DNA from: Shigella phage CT01
Sequence record: OK018184
Reading direction: 5' to 3' (one strand)
DNA length: 64,000 bases
The position numbers and the translations under genes are program-made. Below the pieces are notes generated by a model. The model was not told where the DNA came from. It did no database searches and saw only the letters and a list, made by a program, of their open reading frames with translations. Numbering within the stretch: the first letter of the stretch is position 1; every line of letters starts with the position of its first letter. Positions 3,069 through 46,007 of the stretch are shown here, piece after piece.

Positions 3069-4268
3069 TTTTGTAATAATGTCAAACTGTTCTTTAAAGC
3101 AGAAGCTTGAATCTTGATGCTGATACAAAAATTCATAAGCTTTTTCGCGTTCACGGTCATAAAGAGCTCGGTCAGATGACAGTTCTTTAATACGCCCAAA
3201 TGTTGATTCCATGTCATTTTCATCAAACCAAACGATACCGCTATCATGAGAAATTAACGGAGTATTATCAACACGGAATTTTAAATTTTCACCAGTAGAT
3301 TTCCAAAATACTGGAATTGTTCCGCATGCACCAAGCTCGAGATGAGTGTATTCTAAAGAACGTTGTAGATATTTTTTATCTAATTTACTCAGCTGATAAC
3401 CAAATCCGGATTTACTCATACGTTCAAGCATTTCGCTATTTACATAACGGTCGAGAATTTGCGTTGGCAAATTAGGAGCAATTTTAATTTGGTCTACCTG
3501 ATGAAGACGATAATACTCGTATGGAATTCCTTTTTCTTTAATAGGAATGAATGCTGGAGAACGTTCCAGACCTTCCATAATAGTACTTAGTCCTGCAGGT
3601 TTAAGATGTTTTTCATGAAAATCAAACATCTGATAAAAGCCTTTCCATGTAGTAGTACGACCAATCCAACGGTTGATATTCATGTTAATTTCAGAAACAT
3701 CTTTCCAGTAGGTTGATCGAACCTTCGCAATATCCATAGGAGGCTGAAAGTTGTATACGGTCGGTGCTTCTTCAATATCATCAAACAGAGAAACTGTTTC
3801 TGGATACCATTCTTTCATCAGAACTTTATTAAAGTCACCATTATCAGAATGGCTAAAAATAACATCAGCTCGACGAACAGTTTCTTCTAATCCCAAATTT
3901 CGGCGTAAAGAAAGAGAAGAATGGTCATGCTGGTAAACTACAACACGAACCGAAGGTTTAATGTTATCAATAATTTTTTTATAGTTATTAATGGTGTCTT
4001 CTTCTACTGAAGTAGCAGGAACTGAATTGATAATTAGAATATCACAATCATTTACCAGCTTAAGGGTTTTATCGTATTCTTTTGCCAATAAAACTGGAAT
4101 TGAAAATGATTTATAATCATGCGCGCAATTACGAGTAAATGATTTATCTTTAGCATAAACCAAAGTTACTTCATGACCATTTTTAATAAACCAATCACGT
4201 TGCTCAAGAGAAAATTTAGTTACGCCACAACCTTCAAGACCTCGAGCCATAAAAATGCATACTTTCAT
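3066..4268 (-). CDS. a-gt: DNA alpha-glucosyltransferase (glucosylation of hydroxymethylcytosine)
   Basis: 400-aa ORF starting MKVCIFMARGLEGCGVTKFSLEQRDWFIKNGHEVTLVYAKD, matching T4 alpha-glucosyltransferase in length and sequence as recalled. Confidence 0.8.
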   Translation of the reverse strand: MKVCIFMARGLEGCGVTKFSLEQRDWFIKNGHEVTLVYAKDKSFTRNCAHDYKSFSIPVLLAKEYDKTLKLVNDCDILIINSVPATSVEEDTINNYKKIIDNIKPSVRVVVYQHDHSSLSLRRNLGLEETVRRADVIFSHSDNGDFNKVLMKEWYPETVSLFDDIEEAPTVYNFQPPMDIAKVRSTYWKDVSEINMNINRWIGRTTTWKGFYQMFDFHEKHLKPAGLSTIMEGLERSPAFIPIKEKGIPYEYYRLHQVDQIKIAPNLPTQILDRYVNSEMLERMSKSGFGYQLSKLDKKYLQRSLEYTHLELGACGTIPVFWKSTGENLKFRVDNTPLISHDSGIVWFDENDMESTFGRIKELSSDRALYDREREKAYEFLYQHQDSSFCFKEQFDIITK

Positions 4269-7337: not shown

Positions 7338-7534
7338 GGAGTTTAATTTCCTTAGCAACTGAACTAAATACAGCACGGTCACAAATCATGTGTTTGTTCC
7401 ATTTAAGTACAGTATAATGAACATCTAGATCATCTACTGCTGTAACAATAACAATATGTCCGTTAACACGATAATACTGATCCCTTTTAATCTCTTTATC
7501 AACCATATCAAATCCTCAAAGGCAATTCATATGT

Positions 7535-7568
7535 TAATAATACCACAGTTTGAACTTCTTGTAAACAA
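7535..7568 (-). promoter_or_regulatory. T4 early-type promoter candidate
   Basis: Minus strand reads GTTTAC, an 18-nt spacer, then TATTAT. Confidence 0.4.
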
Positions 7569-7640
7569 CTTTGTGAAAATTATTTTAGGGAATGATAAGA
7601 AGCGAATGATAGTTAGAATGGTAATATACAGAATGTGAGA

Positions 7641-10621: not shown

Positions 10622-11091
10622 TTTAAACTCTTTCTAAGCTGCTTCTTAAATGAAGCTATTAATTGTGTTTTAGTGTCAGATTCATTATATTCAAATCCTC
10701 TTTGAAGCATCTCAGCCATCATTTCCTCTTTTCCTAAACGAGAAAATTCCTTTGATTTATCTCCAACGAAGTTAGGGTGAATATTATTTTGGGTGTAATC
10801 GGATTTTAAATAAGTAAGTAAATTTTCTAACCATTCAAGATAATCAACACCTTGTCCCTTTAAGCCAGAACGATTAAATTTATGTTTCATTTGACCTTCT
10901 GCAGCATTGCAGAGATTACATAGCAACCCACGTACCTTTCCTGCTTTTGGTCCATTTAATTCATGGTCATGGTCAAGGTGATTAGCTTGAACATCAGGAT
11001 TTAGTTCTCGTTGGCAAATTAAGCATTTACCGTTTTGTGCATTATAAAATTTTTGTTTTTCTTCTTTGTACAATTTGCCAGTCAATAACAT
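10618..11091 (-). CDS. 49: endonuclease VII (Holliday-junction resolvase)
   Basis: 157 aa with zinc-binding CLICQ and CNLCN pairs; matches T4 gp49 as recalled. Confidence 0.8.
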   Translation of the reverse strand: MLLTGKLYKEEKQKFYNAQNGKCLICQRELNPDVQANHLDHDHELNGPKAGKVRGLLCNLCNAAEGQMKHKFNRSGLKGQGVDYLEWLENLLTYLKSDYTQNNIHPNFVGDKSKEFSRLGKEEMMAEMLQRGFEYNESDTKTQLIASFKKQLRKSLK

Positions 11092-11356
11092 AATAAACCC
11101 TTACCTTAAATAGATAAGGGTATTTATTATTTTCAAGTATTAAAATGCTCGTTCAGAAAAAGAAATTTGAGTTTCAAGAAGTTCTCGTTGGCAAATTAAG
11201 CATTTACCGTTTTGTGCATTATAAAATTTTTGTTTTTCTTCTTTGTACAATTTGCCAGTCAATAACATAATAAACCCTTACCTTAAATAGATAAGGGTAT
11301 TTATTATTTTCAAGTATTAAAATGCTCGTTCAGAAAAAGAAATTTGAGTTTCAAGC
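11003..11356. repeat. perfect tandem duplication, two units of 177 bp
   Basis: 11003-11178 is identical to 11180-11355; the unit holds the last codons of the upstream ORF, the intergenic region and the first 29 codons of gene 49. Confidence 0.9.
11140..11268 (-). pseudogene. duplication-derived chimeric ORF (gene 49 codons 1-29 fused to the last 13 codons of the upstream gene)
   Basis: Hand translation across the junction gives MLLTGKLYKEEKQKFYNAQNGKCLICQRELLETQISFSERAF. Confidence 0.4.
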
Positions 11357-18377: not shown

Positions 18378-18402
18378 TTTCTGTTCCTCCGTAGTTGATA
18401 GT

Positions 18403-18437
18403 TGTATAGTACCATAGAGGAACAGTCTTGTAAACCA
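18403..18437 (-). promoter_or_regulatory. T4 early-type promoter
   Basis: Minus strand reads GTTTAC, an 18-nt spacer, then TGGTACTAT. Confidence 0.45.
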
Positions 18438-18752
18438 CTAAAAGAAACTTCTTTCACAATTTTTTCCACTGAACCATGCGCTCACTGCTTTCTTAGTCTC
18501 AGGAGCAGTGTTATCCATAAACCATTCAAAGGCAGCCTTTTTATGATTCTGGAGGGCTTCTCGGGCTTTAATCTGCTCACGGTCTATTAACACTAACATA
18601 TGAGCCTTTCTTGTCACCATGGGCTTCTTATGATTTTTTGAATACTCCCAGTCATTTGTCCATCGCATTGTCGTTGCGAACTTAAATACTGCTTCTTTAA
18701 TTTTAGTTTCGTAAATTTCACGAGCCTTTGAGTATAACATCATTACCTCCAT
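18438..18752 (-). CDS. hypothetical protein
   Basis: 104-aa ORF. Confidence 0.45.
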   Translation of the reverse strand: MEVMMLYSKAREIYETKIKEAVFKFATTMRWTNDWEYSKNHKKPMVTRKAHMLVLIDREQIKAREALQNHKKAAFEWFMDNTAPETKKAVSAWFSGKNCERSFF

Positions 18753-18841
18753 TCACCAGTTTAATTCTAGTTATCTTTTTAATGGCAGTCCATATAATCT
18801 ATTTCTGAACTGCCTTTTTGTCATAGAAGTCCTCTTATGAA

Positions 18842-19810
18842 TTATTTCAGAAGAGTAACCTCAGCAATTTCTTCCCAACCGTTTTTGTCGGTCATAATAA
18901 AGTCAGCAAGATAAAGAGCAGTACGCAGTGAAACATTGCGTAAACGATTAACATTAACTTTCATCCATGATAATGCTTTATAAGTTTCTTCATCAGAAAG
19001 ACCGCGCTTTTGCATCATGTCAGTTGAAAGAATAACATCTTCAACCCTGACCATAATTTCTTCATTAGTGTGAACACCCAAATCCAAATAAACCGAGCGG
19101 GACACTAATGCTTGTAAATGTGGAGCAAGTTTAGTACCACGGTCTAATTCGCGGTCAATGTCAACGTTTGTGATAAAAACAATCGTTCCTTTAAATTCAA
19201 ACTCACGCTCAATGCCTTTTTCTTCTAAGTAAGAAGATGCGGTGCTCCAGCAGACTTTACGGGTCTCTCCAGTGTCCAGAGCAGCTTTCAGAAGATTAAG
19301 AATGTCCATATCAGAGAAAACATCCACATCATCAATCAAAAGGACAGAATTCTCTTCACGATTATTCCAAAGCTGTTCATAAAGACCGATACCAGAGATT
19401 TTACCATTAATGCTTTTATATTCAATGTATCCATTATCATTTGCTTTATTCAAAGCTTTATCTAAAGAATACGTTTTACCAATACCCGCCGCACCAGAGA
19501 TAATTAATGAACGAATATTTCCGTTAATAATACCATTCGTCATCATTCCCATAACATTAAATCTTTTATTAATGCGGGTTTTCATATCTTCATATGATTC
19601 TTTAACTTCTTCAACTTTTACACCATCATATGAAATGTCTGATTTGTAAACCCAAACACCGCGACGCTTACCGTCAATTTCAACAAAAACTTTACCATCT
19701 CCTTGTGCATCTACCGGAGCATTATCTGGGAACCATTCACCTAAGAGCTCAAAAGTTCCAGAGATTTCTTTACCGAAGTAGATACCCTTATTGATAGTTA
19801 CAGTTTTCAT
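18842..19810 (-). CDS. AAA+/P-loop ATPase
   Basis: Walker A GAAGIGKT and Walker B LLIDDVD; ATG at 19810 preceded by GGAGAATAAA. Confidence 0.6.
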   Translation of the reverse strand: MKTVTINKGIYFGKEISGTFELLGEWFPDNAPVDAQGDGKVFVEIDGKRRGVWVYKSDISYDGVKVEEVKESYEDMKTRINKRFNVMGMMTNGIINGNIRSLIISGAAGIGKTYSLDKALNKANDNGYIEYKSINGKISGIGLYEQLWNNREENSVLLIDDVDVFSDMDILNLLKAALDTGETRKVCWSTASSYLEEKGIEREFEFKGTIVFITNVDIDRELDRGTKLAPHLQALVSRSVYLDLGVHTNEEIMVRVEDVILSTDMMQKRGLSDEETYKALSWMKVNVNRLRNVSLRTALYLADFIMTDKNGWEEIAEVTLLK

Positions 19811-19844
19811 TTTATTCTCCAATTTTACATTTGTTTTGATAGGG

Positions 19845-19878
19845 TAATAGTATCACACTACTACCCTGCTGTAAACAA
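19845..19878 (-). promoter_or_regulatory. T4 early-type promoter
   Basis: Minus strand reads GTTTAC, an 18-nt spacer, then TGATACTAT. Confidence 0.45.
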
Positions 19879-19879
19879 T

Positions 19880-20143
19880 TTATTTTAATGTTTGCCAAAT
19901 TTTTACTGCTTCGCGACGAGATACTTCTACGGCGCCAAGTTCTATAGCTTTTTGGCGTCGCCGAGCGTGTAAGTCATAATGTTTAATGCGTTTATCTTGA
20001 AACCAAGAACGTTTCATTCCTATTGCTTCTGCCATTTCATGAAGCTCTTCAATATCTCCATCAGTGAACATATGACAATTTTTAGTTGGATGACCGCGAA
20101 GTTTCCATCCATGATTCATTAAAACATCTACGTAAACTGTCAT
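19880..20143 (-). CDS. hypothetical protein (87 aa)
   Basis: ORF MTVYVDVLMNHGWKLRGHPTKNCHMFTDGDIEELHEMAEAIGMKRSWF...; its start region is tandemly duplicated. Confidence 0.5.
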   Translation of the reverse strand: MTVYVDVLMNHGWKLRGHPTKNCHMFTDGDIEELHEMAEAIGMKRSWFQDKRIKHYDLHARRRQKAIELGAVEVSRREAVKIWQTLK

Positions 20144-20306
20144 TGATTCTTCTCCAAATACATTCCTATTGCTTCTGCCATTTCATGAAGCTCTTCAATA
20201 TCTCCATCAGTGAACATATGACAATTTTTAGTTGGATGACCGCGAAGTTTCCATCCATGATTCATTAAAACATCTACGTAAACTGTCATTGATTCTTCTC
20301 CAAATA
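20015..20306. repeat. perfect tandem duplication, two units of 146 bp
   Basis: 20015-20160 is identical to 20161-20306; the unit holds the RBS and first 43 codons of the 87-aa gene plus the last 17 nt of the upstream gene. Confidence 0.9.
20140..20289 (-). pseudogene. duplication-derived truncated copy of the 87-aa gene (43 codons plus YLEKNQ)
   Basis: Second ATG at 20289 with the same RBS; the frame ends at a TGA overlapping the intact gene's ATG. Confidence 0.4.
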
Positions 20307-20435
20307 AGTTTCGATAATTTTCTGAGCGAGATAAACTGCATTATCTTCAGTTGCATCTTCTAAGAAACTTTCAAAACACTCTGAAATTTCTTCTGTGTCA
20401 ATCAACTTTTTTACTTCAATTGGTGTAATTTTCAT
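20286..20435 (-). CDS. small hypothetical protein
   Basis: ATG at 20435 gives MKITPIEVKKLIDTEEISECFESFLEDATEDNAVYLAQKIIETYLEKNQ; the longer track ORF would overlap the promoter. Confidence 0.4.
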   Translation of the reverse strand: MKITPIEVKKLIDTEEISECFESFLEDATEDNAVYLAQKIIETYLEKNQ

Positions 20436-20471
20436 TTTGTTTTTCCGTTTAAGTGTTTGTTTTGATAGTTG

Positions 20472-20504
20472 TATAGTACCATAAAGCTTTATGCTTGTAA
20501 ACAA
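20472..20504 (-). promoter_or_regulatory. T4 early-type promoter
   Basis: Minus strand reads GTTTAC, a 17-nt spacer, then TGGTACTAT. Confidence 0.45.
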
Positions 20505-20526
20505 TTTTGTGAAAAATTTTTGAAAT

Positions 20527-20552
20527 AAAAAAGGGAGCCCGAAGGCTCCCTA
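20527..20552 (-). terminator. hairpin terminator
   Basis: GGGAGCC-UUCG-GGCUCCC stem-loop followed on the minus strand by UUUUUUAUUU. Confidence 0.6.
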
Positions 20553-21566
20553 TCATTTATAATAACTTCGGTGGTTTTCAAGATAAACCCTCTCAAGGAA
20601 GTCATCCCAAAAACCCATGTCTACTTTTTGCTGCATACCGTTCTTAGAAGCTTCAGTAGATGCTGCTTCTACTTGATCGACCACATCTTCCAAAAACTCT
20701 TGAACCGTTTTAAATGGATGTTTACCCAACTTCACGTCGAGAATAAATGGAGCATCTTGGAGTGGATAAACCAAGTCACCAGTTTTGTAAATTTCCAATA
20801 GTTGGAGTCCACCACGGCAAGCATGACTCAGAGCTTTCCAGTCAATACCTTCATTGGCTTCGGCCTTACGAGCACGTTCACCGTATTCAGCATCTAATTT
20901 GTTCAGTGACTGCTTAAGCTCAATAAGAGAAAGCGTTGTCTGATATTTACGACCCAACACTGTGTAGAACGTCTGTGGGCCTGTTTTCTCATGATTATGG
21001 AATACCCATTCGCAGAATTCGTTCTCTGGAAGACGATGCTTAATATCTTCAACTTTAGTACGACGTTGTCCTTGTGTTCCATCTTCTCGGTAATCAACCC
21101 ACTGATCGGGGATTTGATTAACTACTTTCAATACATCACGTAATGCAGCCAAACGAGAACCCTTAACACCATATTTAGAAGCTTGCTTGCGGACATATCC
21201 TAAATAGGATTTCATGTTAGTCGTATAAAAACGAGAACGATTGTCTTGAATAAACTTCCATACATCAGGCAAATCAGATTTAACCACTAGCTCAGGTGGA
21301 GTGTGAAGCATATCCAATGCTACAGTTTCACCATCTGCTGCTAATTTAAAGAAATACTTAAGACTGTATAGTTCATGGTCAATATCATCTTTAGTGTTTT
21401 TAGATGATGTGTTGTTAGTGTTTTTACTCATATGCTCTTTAACATTTCCGATAAGAATATCACGAGCAGGAGGAACAAAGATTTCTTTAAAATCTACATC
21501 AGATTCTGGAGTAGAAGTTCCATAAAGATGACTACCGAAATAGCTTTTCATTACTGTTTTCATCAT
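20553..21566 (-). CDS. Pol-beta-superfamily nucleotidyltransferase-like protein
   Basis: N-terminal GS-x10-DVD motif (GSHLYGTSTPESDVDF) typical of the nucleotidyltransferase fold; 337 aa. Confidence 0.55.
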   Translation of the reverse strand: MMKTVMKSYFGSHLYGTSTPESDVDFKEIFVPPARDILIGNVKEHMSKNTNNTSSKNTKDDIDHELYSLKYFFKLAADGETVALDMLHTPPELVVKSDLPDVWKFIQDNRSRFYTTNMKSYLGYVRKQASKYGVKGSRLAALRDVLKVVNQIPDQWVDYREDGTQGQRRTKVEDIKHRLPENEFCEWVFHNHEKTGPQTFYTVLGRKYQTTLSLIELKQSLNKLDAEYGERARKAEANEGIDWKALSHACRGGLQLLEIYKTGDLVYPLQDAPFILDVKLGKHPFKTVQEFLEDVVDQVEAASTEASKNGMQQKVDMGFWDDFLERVYLENHRSYYK

Positions 21567-22024
21567 TCAGCCTTATATTCAATAACAGGACATACTTTAG
21601 CTTTACGCGTTTTTAAAAATTCGACGATAATAGATTTCTTGGGTTGAATAGGAGGTAAACCTTTATACGCCCTATCAATATTTTCTACATGTAAAGCATA
21701 ATCCTTTTTCCATTTATAATCTTTATATTTTTCATGTAGTTGTGCAGGAATAACAAATGAACCGATAATAAGTAAAACAAGAAAAATGGCAAGTATAAAT
21801 GCTGATGGAATAAGAGTCCATAAACTACCAAAAATAAGCCATTTCTGCATGATTTCTGCGCAGATGATAGTTAGACCTGCGAGTATAGTACATCCGAAAA
21901 AAGAAACGAAAAATGTAGGAATAACAATAGACCAAAAATACGCGCACAGTGTCTTAGGTCGTTTCCATTCATCATTAAACATTTTGAATAATTTATAGTG
22001 CCAAGAGCTTTCATTAATAATCAT
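21563..22024 (-). CDS. hypothetical integral membrane protein
   Basis: 153 aa with several hydrophobic segments. Confidence 0.5.
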   Translation of the reverse strand: MIINESSWHYKLFKMFNDEWKRPKTLCAYFWSIVIPTFFVSFFGCTILAGLTIICAEIMQKWLIFGSLWTLIPSAFILAIFLVLLIIGSFVIPAQLHEKYKDYKWKKDYALHVENIDRAYKGLPPIQPKKSIIVEFLKTRKAKVCPVIEYKAE

Positions 22025-35777: not shown

Positions 35778-35819
35778 TTCATTCTCCAAGTTGTTTTTCT
35801 GTATCAGTAGTTGATAGTT

Positions 35820-35852
35820 GTATAGTACCATGGAAGAACGGGGATGTAAACC
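35820..35852 (-). promoter_or_regulatory. T4 early-type promoter
   Basis: Minus strand reads GTTTAC, a 17-nt spacer, then TGGTACTAT. Confidence 0.45.
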
Positions 35853-35984
35853 GTTTTGTGAAAAAATTTTTAAAAAGTTTTAGGGAATTCTAGGGCAGGG
35901 ATGGGCAATTAAAAGGTAGGATAATATATTATAAAGGGTATAAACTAAATGATGCCTAGAGAGGTCTGGAAAGGCCTAGATACC

Positions 35985-36017: not shown

Positions 36018-36506
36018 TTATTTACCTAGTTTAGTTATTATAGCTTCGGCAGCAGCTTTTAGCTTAGATGCAGTGTTAATACGATTTTTAATTTCAGTAT
36101 AAGCATCGCCAAGAACATCAAGGCTATCAGAATAAACACTTACACTATTGCGTTCGCTATTTGAAATAGAACCTTTAGTTTTACGATCAAAATCGGTATA
36201 CACGTCTTGAAGATCACGGGCTGCCTTCTTTGCATCATCCAATGCATCAAGAGCTTTATTCAAAGCATTGACATATTTTTTAGTGTCAAACATATTCTTA
36301 GAAATTTTGAAAAATGCTTTATTGAAATTATTTTCTTGACTCATCGTAAAAGAACTATTATCGATGTTATACATTTCAATAGCTTTAGCTTTCCACTTAA
36401 GAAAATCGCCCCGGTCTTTTGGGTCCAAGTGGAAGAATACTTTAGTAAGATCTGCTTCAGATGGTAATTTTGCTGCTTCGGTTAAAAATTCGGCATAAGT
36501 TTTCAT
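36018..36506 (-). CDS. internal-protein-like protein with capsid-targeting leader
   Basis: 162 aa beginning MKTYAEFLTEA, the same leader type as ipII and ipIII (Leu at P3, Glu at P1); lysine/alanine-rich. Confidence 0.55.
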   Translation of the reverse strand: MKTYAEFLTEAAKLPSEADLTKVFFHLDPKDRGDFLKWKAKAIEMYNIDNSSFTMSQENNFNKAFFKISKNMFDTKKYVNALNKALDALDDAKKAARDLQDVYTDFDRKTKGSISNSERNSVSVYSDSLDVLGDAYTEIKNRINTASKLKAAAEAIITKLGK

Positions 36507-36589
36507 TTAAAATCCTTGAAATAATTTATTGGTTATTAATTATTTATCACGTTGTTATCATCCATGTTAGCATTCTCTGAGTGATTCAA

Positions 36590-36620
36590 ACTAAAAAGCC
36601 CCAACCTTTCGGTCGGGGCT
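36590..36620 (-). terminator. intrinsic terminator downstream of the tRNA/RNA region
   Basis: AGCCCC...GGGGCT stem-loop followed on the minus strand by UUUUUAG. Confidence 0.55.
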
Positions 36621-36625
36621 AAGCC

Positions 36626-36930
36626 TTGCGGCAACCTTGTCGGGGTTCCACCTGCTAAGGCAAGTGTTTGTACGAAACGCCGGGATTCGAACCCGGTTAT
36701 TAAGTAGTTGACGCTACTCAATATTTTTAAAAGGCCATATCTCGACCATATCCGAACGTTCCGTCAAAAACGCTACTCGGCTTACGGCAAAGATATTTCC
36801 TCGAATCGATAATTCGGTGCGCCGTTTCTGCTGTGATAGTAAAGAATCAGAACACAGTAAAACTGTGGGAGAAACTATACTCCAGGGAACATCAGTCCGA
36901 CGACTTACCGGTAGCGACCCGGTTTCTTAG
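36626..36930 (-). ncRNA. candidate stable RNA with a tRNA-like T-arm (species 1/2-like)
   Basis: No credible ORF; minus strand contains CCGGGTTCGAATCCCGG preceded by an AGTAG/CTACT stem and ends at the terminator. Confidence 0.3.
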
Positions 36931-37293: not shown

Positions 37294-37369
37294 TGGTCGA
37301 GGCAGTAGGGATCGAACCTACGACCTAGGACTTAGAAGGTCCTTGCTCTTCCTTCTGAGCTATGCCTCG
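37294..37369 (-). tRNA. tRNA-Arg (anticodon TCT)
   Basis: Hand-folded cloverleaf: acceptor CGAGGCA/TGCCTCG, anticodon loop CTTCTAA, T-loop TTCGATC, encoded CCA. Confidence 0.85.
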
Positions 37370-37373
37370 GATT

Positions 37374-37448
37374 TGGCGGACGTGATAGGATTCGAACCTA
37401 TAACCAATCGCTTAACAGGCGATCGCTCTGCCATTGAGCTACACATCC
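37374..37448 (-). tRNA. tRNA-Asn (anticodon GTT)
   Basis: Acceptor GGATGTG/CACGTCC, anticodon loop CTGTTAA, T-loop TTCGAAT, encoded CCA. Confidence 0.8.
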
Positions 37449-37452
37449 AAAT

Positions 37453-37539
37453 TGGTGGGGAGTGGTGGAGTCGAACCACCCGAGTCGCAATGACAATGGA
37501 TTTACAGTCCACACCGCTACCTCTACGGGATAACTCCCC
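37453..37539 (-). tRNA. tRNA-Tyr (anticodon GTA), class II
   Basis: Acceptor GGGGAGT/ACTCCCC, anticodon loop CTGTAAA, long variable arm, T-loop TTCGACT, encoded CCA. Confidence 0.8.
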
Positions 37540-37548
37540 AAATTAATT

Positions 37549-37623
37549 TGGTGGCCCTGGGTGGAATTGAACCACCATCTGGCGATTATGAGTCGCTTGC
37601 TTGAACCTTCCAGCTACAGGGCC
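37549..37623 (-). tRNA. tRNA with CAT anticodon (Ile if lysidine-modified, otherwise Met)
   Basis: Acceptor GGCCCTG/CAGGGCC, anticodon loop CTCATAA, encoded CCA; at the position of T4 tRNA-Ile. Confidence 0.75.
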
Positions 37624-37624
37624 T

Positions 37625-37700
37625 TGGTGCTGATTGACGGAATCGAACCGCCGACCTTCTCATTACAAGTGAGTTGCTCTACCTACTGAGCTAAATCAGC
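37625..37700 (-). tRNA. tRNA-Thr (anticodon TGT)
   Basis: Acceptor GCTGATT/AATCAGC, anticodon loop CTTGTAA, T-loop TTCGATT, encoded CCA. Confidence 0.85.
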
Positions 37701-37705
37701 AAAAC

Positions 37706-37795
37706 TGGCGGAGGCGATAGGATTTGAACCTATGAGTCGCCGGAGCGACTGCCGGTTTTCAAGACCGGTGCATTAAACCACTCTGCCACGCCTCC
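37706..37795 (-). tRNA. tRNA-Ser (anticodon TGA), class II
   Basis: Acceptor GGAGGCG/CGCCTCC, anticodon loop CTTGAAA, long variable arm, encoded CCA. Confidence 0.85.
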
Positions 37796-37797
37796 AG

Positions 37798-37871
37798 TCT
37801 CCATACAAGGATTTGAACCTTGGACCTCCTGATCCCAAATCAGGCGCTCTACCAAACTGAGCTACACGGAG
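37798..37871 (-). tRNA. tRNA-Pro (anticodon TGG), CCA not encoded
   Basis: Acceptor CTCCGTG/TATGGAG, anticodon loop TTTGGGA, T-loop TTCAAAT; abuts tRNA-Ser with a 2-nt spacer. Confidence 0.8.
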
Positions 37872-37881
37872 TAAATTAAAT

Positions 37882-37955
<74 letters not shown>

Positions 37956-37960
37956 AAATT

Positions 37961-38047
37961 TGGTGCGAGAAGTGGGACTCGAACCCACAAGGAAATCATT
38001 CCGCAGCATTTTAAGTGCTGTGCCTTTACCAATTTGACCATTCTCGC
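37961..38047 (-). tRNA. tRNA-Leu (anticodon TAA), class II
   Basis: Acceptor GCGAGAA/TTCTCGC, anticodon loop CTTAAAA, long variable arm, encoded CCA. Confidence 0.85.
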
Positions 38048-38048
38048 G

Positions 38049-38115
38049 CTGGGAATAAAGGACTCGAACCTTTGCATCCTGGAATCAAAATCCAGTGCCT
38101 TACCAATAACTCCCC
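38049..38115 (-). pseudogene. chimeric tRNA remnant: 3' 58 nt of tRNA-Gln joined to the first 10 nt of tRNA-Tyr
   Basis: Identical to the intact tRNA-Gln at 38625-38697 over its 3' part, but the 5' acceptor and D-arm are replaced by GGGGAGTTAT at the duplication junction. Confidence 0.7.
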
Positions 38116-38124
38116 AAATTAATT

Positions 38125-38199
38125 TGGTGGCCCTGGGTGGAATTGAACCACCATCTGGCGATTATGAGTCGCTTGCTTGAACCTTCCAGCTACAGGGCC
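38125..38199 (-). tRNA. tRNA with CAT anticodon, duplicate copy
   Basis: Identical to 37549-37623, shifted by 576 bp. Confidence 0.75.
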
Positions 38200-38200
38200 T

Positions 38201-38276
38201 TGGTGCTGATTGACGGAATCGAACCGCCGACCTTCTCATTACAAGTGAGTTGCTCTACCTACTGAGCTAAATCAGC
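38201..38276 (-). tRNA. tRNA-Thr (TGT), duplicate copy
   Basis: Identical to 37625-37700, shifted by 576 bp. Confidence 0.85.
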
Positions 38277-38281
38277 AAAAC

Positions 38282-38371
38282 TGGCGGAGGCGATAGGATT
38301 TGAACCTATGAGTCGCCGGAGCGACTGCCGGTTTTCAAGACCGGTGCATTAAACCACTCTGCCACGCCTCC
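38282..38371 (-). tRNA. tRNA-Ser (TGA), duplicate copy
   Basis: Identical to 37706-37795, shifted by 576 bp. Confidence 0.85.
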
Positions 38372-38373
38372 AG

Positions 38374-38447
38374 TCTCCATACAAGGATTTGAACCTTGGA
38401 CCTCCTGATCCCAAATCAGGCGCTCTACCAAACTGAGCTACACGGAG
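38374..38447 (-). tRNA. tRNA-Pro (TGG), duplicate copy
   Basis: Identical to 37798-37871, shifted by 576 bp. Confidence 0.8.
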
Positions 38448-38457
38448 TAAATTAAAT

Positions 38458-38531
<74 letters not shown>

Positions 38532-38536
38532 AAATT

Positions 38537-38623
38537 TGGTGCGAGAAGTGGGACTCGAACCCACAAGGAAATCATTCCGCAGCATTTTAAGTGCTGTGCC
38601 TTTACCAATTTGACCATTCTCGC
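38537..38623 (-). tRNA. tRNA-Leu (TAA), duplicate copy
   Basis: Identical to 37961-38047, shifted by 576 bp. Confidence 0.85.
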
Positions 38624-38624
38624 G

Positions 38625-38697
38625 CTGGGAATAAAGGACTCGAACCTTTGCATCCTGGAATCAAAATCCAGTGCCTTACCAACTTGGCTAATTCCCA
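38625..38697 (-). tRNA. tRNA-Gln (anticodon TTG), intact copy, CCA not encoded
   Basis: Acceptor TGGGAAT/ATTCCCA, anticodon loop TTTTGAT, T-loop TTCGAGT; abuts tRNA-Leu with a 1-nt spacer. Confidence 0.8.
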
Positions 38698-39675: not shown

Positions 39676-39701
39676 TTTATTCTCCTCAGTAGTTGATAGG
39701 G

Positions 39702-39735
39702 TAATAGTATCACAACTAAAACCCTATGTAAACAA
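39702..39735 (-). promoter_or_regulatory. T4 early-type promoter
   Basis: Minus strand reads GTTTAC, an 18-nt spacer, then TGATACTAT. Confidence 0.45.
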
Positions 39736-39751
39736 CTTTGTGAAATATTTA

Positions 39752-40039
39752 TTACAAAAGATTTTTAGCAATAATCTTGAGATGTGCCGCAGAAATGTGT
39801 TTAGCTTTAAACAACGCAGTTTCTTCAGCAGGAGAGATAATGATTGTAGCACCATCCTTTTTAGCAGACCACCCATCACCTAGGTAAACAGTACCTTTGA
39901 TTTCTTCGCCATCAACCAAACTAATCATTGGTTTACCTTCTCGTCCTTTATTTGCTTTAATAACTTCAGAAGTAAGAGTAGCTTCAGTAATAGTAGAAAC
40001 CGGGGTAGTTGTAGAAGTAAATTCTTTGAAAGTTTTCAT
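39752..40039 (-). CDS. ipI: internal protein I-like protein
   Basis: 95 aa beginning MKTFKEF with a leader ending ITE-A; sits directly upstream of 57B as ipI does in T4. Confidence 0.55.
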   Translation of the reverse strand: MKTFKEFTSTTTPVSTITEATLTSEVIKANKGREGKPMISLVDGEEIKGTVYLGDGWSAKKDGATIIISPAEETALFKAKHISAAHLKIIAKNLL

Positions 40040-40067
40040 TTTATTTTCCTAATTAATTTTGATGAGA

Positions 40068-40101
40068 TAATAGTATCACTACCTCATCAACGTGTAAACA
40101 A
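40068..40101 (-). promoter_or_regulatory. T4 early-type promoter upstream of the ipI-like gene
   Basis: Minus strand reads GTTTAC, an 18-nt spacer, then TGATACTAT. Confidence 0.45.
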
Positions 40102-40111
40102 CTTTGTGAAA

Positions 40112-40808
<697 letters not shown>

Positions 40809-42208: not shown

Positions 42209-42382
42209 TTAATTTATTAGACTTCTTAAACGAGCAGAAGTCATAAATGGAAATTTTTCTAAAGTTGGCTTTCGCCAATATCTTGGATGACAAGTTGATT
42301 TAAAATCAAGAACAATTTTCTTTGCTTCATCAATAGTGCTAACCCTATCAATTAGTGAATTATAAATTTTTTCATAATTCAT
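42209..42382 (-). CDS. small hypothetical protein
   Basis: 57 codons from an ATG at 42382 that overlaps the gp2 stop (ATGA). Confidence 0.3.
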
Positions 42383-44296: not shown

Positions 44297-46007
44297 TAAC
44301 CTCAATTGGTTTGTTGGTGTTGTTGAAGATAGAATGGACCCATTAAAATTAGGTCGTGTTCGTGTTCGTGTGGTTGGTCTGCATCCACCTCAAAGAGCAC
44401 AAGGTGATGTAATGGGTATTCCAACCGATAAATTGCCATGGATGTCAGTTATTCAACCGATAACTTCTGCAGCAATGTCTGGAATTGGAGGCTCCGTTAC
44501 TGGTCCGGTAGAAGGAACTAGAGTTTATGGTCATTTTTTAGACAAATGGAAAACTAACGGAATTGTTCTTGGCACGTATGGTGGAATAGTTCGCGAAAAG
44601 CCTAATAGACTTGAAGGATTTTCTGACCCGACTGGACAGTATCCTAGACGTCTAGGAAATGATACTAACGTATTAAACCAAGGCGGAGAAGTAGGATATG
44701 ATTCGTCTTCTAATATTATCCAAGATAGTAATTTAGATACTGCGATAAATCCCGATGATAGACCACTATCAGAGATTCCAACTGATGATAATCCAAATAT
44801 GTCAATGGCTGAAATGCTTCGCCGTGATGAAGGATTAAGACTAAAAGTTTATTGGGATACTGAAGGATATCCGACAATTGGTATTGGTCATCTTATCATG
44901 AAGCAGCCAGTTCGTGATATGGCCCAAATTAATAAAGTTTTATCAAAACAGGTTGGTCGTGAAATTACCGGAAATCCAGGTTCTATTACAATGGAAGAAG
45001 CGGTAACTTTATTTGAACGTGATTTAGCTGATATGCAACGTGACATTAAATCACATTCTAAAGTTGGCCCAGTTTGGCAAGCAGTTAATCGTTCTCGTCA
45101 AATGGCATTAGAAAATATGGCATTTCAGATGGGTGTTGGCGGTGTAGCTAAATTTAACACAATGTTAACTGCTATGTTAGCCGGAGATTGGGAAAAAGCA
45201 TATAAAGCTGGTCGTGATTCATTGTGGTATCAACAAACAAAAGGCCGTGCATCTCGTGTTACCATGATTATTCTTACAGGGAATTTGGAATCATACGGTA
45301 TTGAAGTGAAAACACCAGCTAGGTCTTTGTCGGCAATGGCTGCTACTGTAGCAAAGTCTTCTGATCCGGCCGATCCTCCTATTCCGAATGATTCGAGAAT
45401 TTTATTTAAAGAACCTGTTTCTTCATATAAAGGTGAATATCCATATGTTCACACAATGGAAACTGAAAGCGGTCATATTCAGGAATTTGATGATACGCCT
45501 GGACAAGAACGATACAGATTAGTTCATCCGACTGGAACATATGAGGAAGTATCACCGTCAGGAAGAAGAACAAGAAAAACTGTTGATAATTTGTATGATA
45601 TAACAAATGCTGACGGTAATTTTTTGGTAGCCGGCGATAAAAAGACTAACGTCGGTGGATCAGAAATTTACTACAACATGGATAATCGTCTTCACCAAAT
45701 AGATGGAAGCAACACAATATTTGTCCGTGGCGATGAAACTAAGACAGTTGAAGGTAATGGAACTATCCTAGTTAAAGGTAATGTTACTATTGTAGTCGAA
45801 GGTAATGCTGACATTACAGTTAAAGGAGATGCTACCACTTTAGTTGAAGGAAATCAGACTAATACAGTAAATGGAAATCTTTCTTGGAAAGTTGCTGGGA
45901 CAGTTGATTGGGACGTTGGTGGTGATTGGACAGAAAAAATGGCATCTATGAGTTCTATTTCATCTGGTCAATACACAATTGATGGATCGAGGATTGACAT
46001 TGGCTAA
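44280..46007 (+). CDS. 5: gp5 baseplate hub / cell-puncturing protein with lysozyme domain
   Basis: 575 aa; N-terminus MEMISNNLNWFVGVVEDRMDP; internal lysozyme domain AEMLRRDEGLRLKVYWDTEGYPTIGIGHLI homologous to e; C-terminal VEGN repeats. Confidence 0.9.
   Translation: MEMISNNLNWFVGVVEDRMDPLKLGRVRVRVVGLHPPQRAQGDVMGIPTDKLPWMSVIQPITSAAMSGIGGSVTGPVEGTRVYGHFLDKWKTNGIVLGTYGGIVREKPNRLEGFSDPTGQYPRRLGNDTNVLNQGGEVGYDSSSNIIQDSNLDTAINPDDRPLSEIPTDDNPNMSMAEMLRRDEGLRLKVYWDTEGYPTIGIGHLIMKQPVRDMAQINKVLSKQVGREITGNPGSITMEEAVTLFERDLADMQRDIKSHSKVGPVWQAVNRSRQMALENMAFQMGVGGVAKFNTMLTAMLAGDWEKAYKAGRDSLWYQQTKGRASRVTMIILTGNLESYGIEVKTPARSLSAMAATVAKSSDPADPPIPNDSRILFKEPVSSYKGEYPYVHTMETESGHIQEFDDTPGQERYRLVHPTGTYEEVSPSGRRTRKTVDNLYDITNADGNFLVAGDKKTNVGGSEIYYNMDNRLHQIDGSNTIFVRGDETKTVEGNGTILVKGNVTIVVEGNADITVKGDATTLVEGNQTNTVNGNLSWKVAGTVDWDVGGDWTEKMASMSSISSGQYTIDGSRIDIG

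Follow-up and report, generated by a model that had tools for sequence, protein, structure and literature searches.

Tandem duplications in T-even phages

The classic duplications of phage T4 are those of rII and Hp17, and homologous recombination in this phage is very active. The dmd-tifA locus amplifies under ToxIN, and the boundaries of the amplified units lie at microhomologies of 6–10 bp (Srikant et al. 2022, PMC9391042); the junction microhomologies of earlier T4 duplications range from 2 to 10 bp (PMC9391042). Under Septu, a 718-bp unit made of tRNA-Tyr and segB amplifies, also with junction microhomology (Chihara et al. 2026, PMC13096335), and under OLD the region gp49.1-nrdC.1 amplifies (PMC13096335). 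The Septu and OLD amplifications need the SegB nuclease, UvsX and UvsY (PMC13096335). The amplified arrays of T-even phages form copy-number ladders and collapse without selection (PMC13096335).

Here, these systems are compared with a 146-bp tandem duplication in Shigella phage CT01 (sequence record OK018184). The stretch analysed, referred to as the window, is 64,000 nucleotides long. A period scan shows that it holds three perfect tandem duplications within 27 kb, for which we will use the terms A, B and C in the order of their positions; the 146-bp duplication is B. Like the T-even amplifications, B is a head-to-tail tandem repeat in an early accessory part of a T4-type genome. The other two also lie at comparable places, which for C is the tRNA cluster and for A the neighbourhood of pin. 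However, the junctions of A, B and C show a microhomology of 0–1 nt as against 2–10 bp, and the CT01 repeats have exactly two copies in the sequence, as against copy-number ladders. Also, a T-even amplification unit contains a complete selected gene, while units A and B have none. Unit B consists of 43 of the 87 DUF4031 codons and a tail of six codons, and only unit C has complete genes, which are tRNA genes. From the sequence record we infer that duplication B is probably an assembly or finishing artefact that is absent from the phage DNA.

The cassette and its expression signals

The window belongs to a T4-like phage (Tequatrovirus). A megablast search with positions 19400–21000 returns 599 phage records, mainly from Escherichia, Shigella and Yersinia phages. 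Duplication B lies in an accessory early cassette of two genes, a 49-aa gene and an 87-aa DUF4031 gene, located between an nrdC.11-like and an nrdC.10-like gene (Table 1). In the T4 genome, nrdC.10 adjoins nrdC.11 directly without the cassette, and the pair is regarded as accessory for this reason.

The intact 87-aa protein matches the Pfam family DUF4031 with an E-value of 1.5e-21 and 76.8 bits (cut-off 25.6) over profile positions 7–73 of 76. About 136 Tequatrovirus records have a homologue, and so do T4-like phages of Klebsiella and Enterobacter. DUF4031, a family with no assigned function, receives a passing mention in only one paper, and a search for a solved relative yielded no structure match.

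The promoter-like site of the cassette is located outside the 146-bp repeat, and its counterpart in fPS-90 is annotated as a predicted early promoter. Seven related sequences of ~62 nt in the window, repeat family D2, are T4 early-promoter consensus regions with the plus-strand reading …TATAGTACCA…TGTAAAC…. In P922 (CDS 3741–3890 and 3481–3744) and in fPS-90 (same coordinates), the TGA of the 49-aa gene overlaps the ATG of the DUF4031 gene, giving ATGA. Judging from the genome sequences, this overlap is the native junction between the two genes in all single-copy relatives.

Positions 18500–21760, comprising the nrdC.10-like gene, the cassette and the nrdC.11-like gene, are 100% identical to P922, and the identity of the flanks is about 95–98%. 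This 3.2-kb block is typical of T4-type mosaicism and suggests a recent exchange.

Table 1. Features of the cassette, the three duplications and the early-promoter repeats in the window of phage CT01
Feature	Position	Strand	Remarks
Intact DUF4031 gene, 87 aa	19880..20143	minus	PF13223, phrog_4887
Intact upstream gene, 49 aa	20286..20435	minus	From the ORF list; phrog_6888
Duplication B, copy transcribed first	20161..20306	minus	Tail of the 49-aa gene, GGAG 20301–20298, ATG 20289–20287, DUF4031 codons 1–43
Duplication B, second copy	20015..20160	minus	GGAG 20155–20152, ATG 20143–20141, codons 1–43 of the intact DUF4031 gene
Chimeric 49-aa ORF	20140..20289	minus	DUF4031 residues 1–43 + YLEKNQ; made by the duplication
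nrdC.11-like nucleotidyltransferase gene	20553–21566	minus	Upstream flank of the cassette
nrdC.10-like gene, AAA/STAND-like NTPase	18842–19822	minus	Downstream flank of the cassette
Putative early promoter of the cassette	20473..20501	minus	TTTACA, 17-nt spacer, TACTAT, with TG; T4-like
Terminator-like hairpin and T run	20532..20551	minus	End of the nrdC.11-like gene, upstream of the cassette; annotated terminator in fPS-90
Putative early promoter of the nrdC.10-like gene	19847..19875	minus	Downstream end of the cassette; repeat family D2; also annotated in fPS-90
Members of repeat family D2	7526–7587, 18395–18456, 19836–19897, 20462–20523, 35811–35872, 39693–39754, 40059–40120		Two bracket the DUF4031 cassette
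Duplication A	11003..11355	minus	176 bp twice, one stray base at 11179
Chimeric ORF of A, 42 aa	11140–11268	minus	In frame; made by duplication A
Duplication C	37530..38682	minus	576 bp twice, 1-nt junction overlap

Structure of the 146-bp duplication

Positions 20015–20160 and 20161–20306 are identical base for base in a direct string comparison. TRF gives a period of 146, 2.0 copies, 100% matches and a score of 584, and in the period scan the identity run is exactly 146 at period 146. The original prediction of a perfect 146-bp tandem duplication is therefore borne out by three methods. A chance origin, with a probability of about 4^-146, is impossible.

Read on the minus strand, the unit opens with TAT TTG GAG AAG AAT CAA TGA, the last six codons and the stop of the upstream gene. 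This opening contains the GGAG ribosome-binding site and the overlapping ATG, with GGAG standing 8 nt upstream of the ATG (GGAG-N8-ATG), and the unit then runs to codon 43 of the DUF4031 gene. The unit had been described as carrying the ribosome-binding site and the first 43 codons, which is correct, together with 17 nt of the upstream gene, which is not. The upstream gene contributes 21 nt (YLEKNQ and TGA, 20306–20286), and 17 nt of these precede the ATG. The ATGA overlap is duplicated passively, because the unit spans the native junction.

The chimeric ORF made by the duplication ends at a TGA (20142–20140) that overlaps the ATG of the intact DUF4031 gene (20143–20141), and the chance expectation for such an in-frame ending is 1 in 3. 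The original prediction had the 49 codons and the overlap right but took the product for a truncated peptide, while it is really a chimera ending in YLEKNQ. Against Pfam DUF4031 the chimeric ORF scores 26.5 bits (cut-off 25.6) and covers profile positions 1–36 of 76 only. By this measure, the 49-aa fragment is half of a single 76-residue domain and no function is indicated for it.

The geometry of a putative coupled pair, with a stop/start overlap and a ribosome-binding site inside the upstream ORF, is found at the intact gene and is the same in P922 and fPS-90. It had been proposed that the intact gene would be translationally coupled to its own N-terminal fragment. The GGAG of the intact gene and its stop/start overlap with the fragment are indeed there, but this is not a special arrangement, as all single-copy relatives already carry ATGA between the 49-aa gene and the DUF4031 gene. 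The sequence at the junction of the two copies is CCAAATA/CATTCC (20154–20166), or, in its wider context, ...TTCTCCAAATA/CATTCCTATTG.... Since the identity run and the period are both 146, the junction microhomology is 0 nt.

Occurrence of the duplication in other phages

In a megablast search with a 1601-nt query over B, each of the relatives listed covers 1455 nt, the length of the query less one 146-nt unit. P922, with 100% identity over the region of B, also has a single copy. An 80-nt query with the junction at its centre aligns only in two halves of 40 nt, at opposite ends of a single unit, and the contiguous junction has no match at E ≤ 1e-20 in 50,697 phage records, a cut-off that a contiguous junction would pass easily. 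The exact 36-nt junction is absent from IMG/VR, the JGI metagenomes and the GTDB genomes; as a positive control, the native boundary was recovered in IMG/VR. The exact 49-aa chimeric peptide is not on record among 153 billion gene positions. A tblastn search with the 87-aa protein finds 326 places in 326 phage records, and none of these records has a second partial copy.

Some other explanations of the arrangement have been rejected. The junction is not a mosaic or recombination boundary, as it sits in the middle of the 3.2-kb block that is 100% identical to P922. The window is also not a known genome with extra sequence added, given that its best 25-kb match is about 97% identical and that the P922 segments are 95–99.6% identical. 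In phage sutha, two consecutive 150-nt CDSs are found upstream of DUF4031, but these are not the same duplication: the spacing is that of a single copy, the scan finds no repeat, and the additional CDS corresponds to another ORF, which covers the promoter/terminator region.

Companion duplications A and C

Unit A holds the end of pin (12 codons), the hairpin in the intergenic region that separates pin from gene 49, and the start of gene 49 (endonuclease VII) with its ribosome-binding site and 30 codons. Its junction is ...GTTTCAAG-A-AGTTCTCG..., with a microhomology of 0 nt and one untemplated base, and the identity run is 176 at period 177. With a 1001-nt query over A, the listed relatives cover 824–825 nt, corresponding to a single copy. 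Between pin and gene 49, P922 (127363–127539) and SF2-1 have an additional gene of 58 aa, which is absent from the window and from most relatives. The P922 gene was considered as an old version of A and rejected, as its sequence is unrelated.

Duplication C was missed by TRF, its period being greater than 500. Because of C, six tRNA genes (Met/Ile, Thr, Ser, Pro, Gly and Leu) are present twice, and the window has 16 tRNA genes as against 10, in a single cluster, in the relatives. The breakpoints are inside tRNA-Tyr (10 nt from the 5' end) and tRNA-Gln (16 nt from the 5' end), and a chimeric fragment of 68 nt, tRNA-Tyr(5')/tRNA-Gln(3'), is present at about 38048–38115. The junction is ...GCCTTACCA/ATAACTCCCC..., with a microhomology of 1 nt, an identity run of 577 and a period of 576. 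The listed relatives cover about 1225 nt of an 1801-nt query over C, again a single copy. Some relatives have longer tRNA-cluster spans, which are due to an extra gene or tRNA-His and are not duplications. A literature search for a T4-like phage with 16 tRNAs matched only an unrelated Justusliebigvirus. Next to this region, tRNA-Asn and tRNA-Tyr (37294–37539) occupy the slot between tRNA-Arg and tRNA-Ile/Met, as they do in P922 and Sfk20. In T4 and fPS-90 the same slot holds segB (36254–36919 in the sequence compared), and these are alternative occupants.

The contiguous junctions of A and C have no match at E ≤ 1e-20 in the 50,697 phage records, and their exact 36-nt junctions are absent from IMG/VR, the JGI metagenomes and the GTDB genomes. 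An exact look-up of the 42-aa chimeric peptide of A was negative. The same scan detects no such duplication in the homologous DNA of seven relatives, about 299 kb in total (P922, T4, fPS-90, SF2-1, sutha and three short loci). Private SNPs of the CT01 window are present in both copies of A and in both copies of C.

A further repeat in the window, an imperfect tandem repeat of 24 nt (8 codons) in about five copies at 45744–45878, is located inside a baseplate gene. Comparison of its position with P922 and with T4 gene 5 points to the octapeptide beta-helix repeat of the gp5 needle as its probable identity, and it has the look of an ordinary protein repeat.

SegB and homing endonucleases

A tblastn search, with T4 and fPS-90 SegB among the queries, found neither segB nor any of 8–10 other T-even homing endonucleases in the window. 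The SegB motif RAWTSGAAC has 11 matches in the window as against 6.5 expected, which is not an enrichment; the matches are only in tRNA T-arms and none is within 100 nt of any breakpoint. SegB-driven amplification is rejected on these grounds, the window having no segB or homing endonuclease gene and the breakpoints no nearby motif. As far as the sequence indicates, the known biological route through microhomology and SegB is not supported.

The sole trace of a homing endonuclease in the window is a 44-aa C-terminal HNH remnant at 42212–42343 on the minus strand, which is 100% identical to the corresponding part of an HNH gene. Shigella phage SF2-1 has the full gene, located between its genes 2 and 3, and by this comparison the remnant is apparently what is left of a decayed or deleted homing endonuclease gene.

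Origin of the duplications

In the assembly or finishing artefact proposed here, two adjacent pieces (contigs or gap-closing reads) overlapping by 146 bp would have been joined end to end with the overlap left unmerged, and such a join would give an exact head-to-tail repeat. The same fault at two other joins would involve overlaps of 176 bp, with one erroneous end base, and of 576 bp. The 49-aa ORF and the ATGA overlap would be automatic by-products of the join, because the 146-bp overlap spans the native ATGA junction. Blind end-to-end joining would be expected to produce perfect copies, junction homology at chance level, an occasional stray base, several cases in one record and none in relatives. 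The CT01 duplications resemble unmerged contig overlaps in all these features, being exact and head-to-tail, private, several in one sequence and without junction homology, with one stray end base. Unlike typical overlap artefacts, they are internal and not at the ends of the record, and their lengths fit no single k-mer or read length. The lengths of 146, 176 (+1) and 576 are not uniform, match no common k, and are compatible only with overlap-type or manual joining; manual or reference-guided joining must be assumed, because an assembler should merge a perfect overlap of 576 bp. An artefact is considered the likelier origin because B is private, occurs together with two further perfect duplications, and does not show the features typical of real T4 duplications.

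The alternative that B is a real and very recent tandem duplication, one of three formed by homology-independent joining, is possible but doubtful. Broken or switched sister copies would have been joined during T4-type recombination-dependent replication, and the product fixed by the bottleneck of plaque purification. Tandem amplification is well documented in the T-even phages T4 and T6, with examples from the tRNA locus and from the region beside pin (PMC13096335, PMC9391042), which raises the prior for a real C and a real A. The sites of these two duplications, by analogy with the amplification-prone pin-nrdC.2 region and tRNA cluster (PMC13096335), would count against an artefact. The clean base-level quality of the window, which is free of frameshift litter, does so as well. 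A base-level sloppiness of the assembly was rejected, as there are few uncompensated indels relative to P922 and most of these are outside long ORFs or no more than ~100 nt from an ORF end. Every gene stays intact, and a phage carrying the duplications would for this reason be viable. In both coding chimeras the reading frame is kept up to the native stop of the upstream gene; the chance of this is 1/9, and it also counts against an artefact. For B, only one of three frames keeps the native terminate-and-restart geometry at the intact ATG, and it is the one observed. For A, the in-frame chimera implies no selection, because the other frames also stop before the ribosome-binding site of gene 49. 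Duplication C doubles six complete tRNA genes and is plausibly selectable. On the other hand, the junctions are without the 2–10 bp of microhomology of documented T4 events, the nuclease and its motif are missing as described above, and no such duplication is seen in hundreds of relatives. A and B could not be maintained by dosage, because neither unit has a complete gene. The copies are 100% identical and hence give no signal of age. Unselected duplications of 146–576 bp would be short-lived, because T4 recombination is very active and because arrays are, according to PMC13096335, unstable without selection. Three independent events of this kind at once in a consensus genome are improbable.

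The duplications could also be minority variants in the phage stock, or library chimeras, with the assembler threading a loop once and giving a two-copy consensus although most genomes have one copy. The amplifications in T-even lysates are heterogeneous, with copy-number ladders (PMC13096335, PMC9391042), and a de Bruijn loop resulting from a few junction reads can presumably be traversed once. Yet three loci would need the same treatment, microhomology is lacking here too, and the stray base at junction A looks more like an error at a sequence end, all of which makes this origin very unlikely. It is hardly credible that the arrangement is a selected innovation, with the DUF4031 fragment serving either as a micro-protein, for example a dominant-negative form or a decoy, or as a leader ORF that adjusts the translation of the intact gene. 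The fragment does have a full ribosome-binding site, an ATG and a putatively coupled stop. Against this, the two copies are identical, with no divergence under selection, the arrangement is present in none of the 326 genomes carrying DUF4031, and the fragment is half of one domain. The same type of event at two unrelated loci in the window indicates a process rather than a function.

Implications

Duplication B is most likely not biological and probably ordinary. If it is an artefact, the record needs correcting, as about 900 bp of the window would be spurious, and the chimeric ORFs of 49 and 42 aa and six of the 16 tRNA genes should go unannotated. Where a perfect tandem repeat is confined to one phage record, the reads should be consulted before it is interpreted.

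If duplication B is real, it is a known kind of event, a T-even tandem duplication, with atypical junctions. The transcript from the promoter at 20501–20473 is then predicted to carry three serial ORFs, namely the 49-aa gene, the 49-aa chimeric ORF and the intact DUF4031 gene, each with GGAG-N8-ATG and each joined to the next by an ATGA overlap. Copies of the native signals would serve for the translation of all three. Since the intact DUF4031 gene would keep its native upstream context, its expression is predicted to stay roughly the same. Going by its sequence, the fragment would most likely be an unstable and neutral by-product. The repeat itself would soon be lost through homologous recombination between the copies.

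A real B would mean that neither microhomology nor SegB is required for tandem duplication in T4-type phages, and that new small ORFs open to translation, as well as additional tRNA copies, arise in this way, which bears on phage gene birth and on the escape from tRNA-targeting defences. That all three duplications are real is unlikely. In that case, CT01 would be a segB-less T4-like phage that makes homology-independent tandem duplications of partial genes and has doubled six tRNA genes. The start of a gene would be copied together with the tail of the preceding gene, giving in-frame chimeras of 49 and 42 aa with native expression signals. The window would then be a snapshot of the birth of tiny early ORFs in the 'hyperplastic' regions of T4-type genomes, outside the microhomology/SegB pathway.
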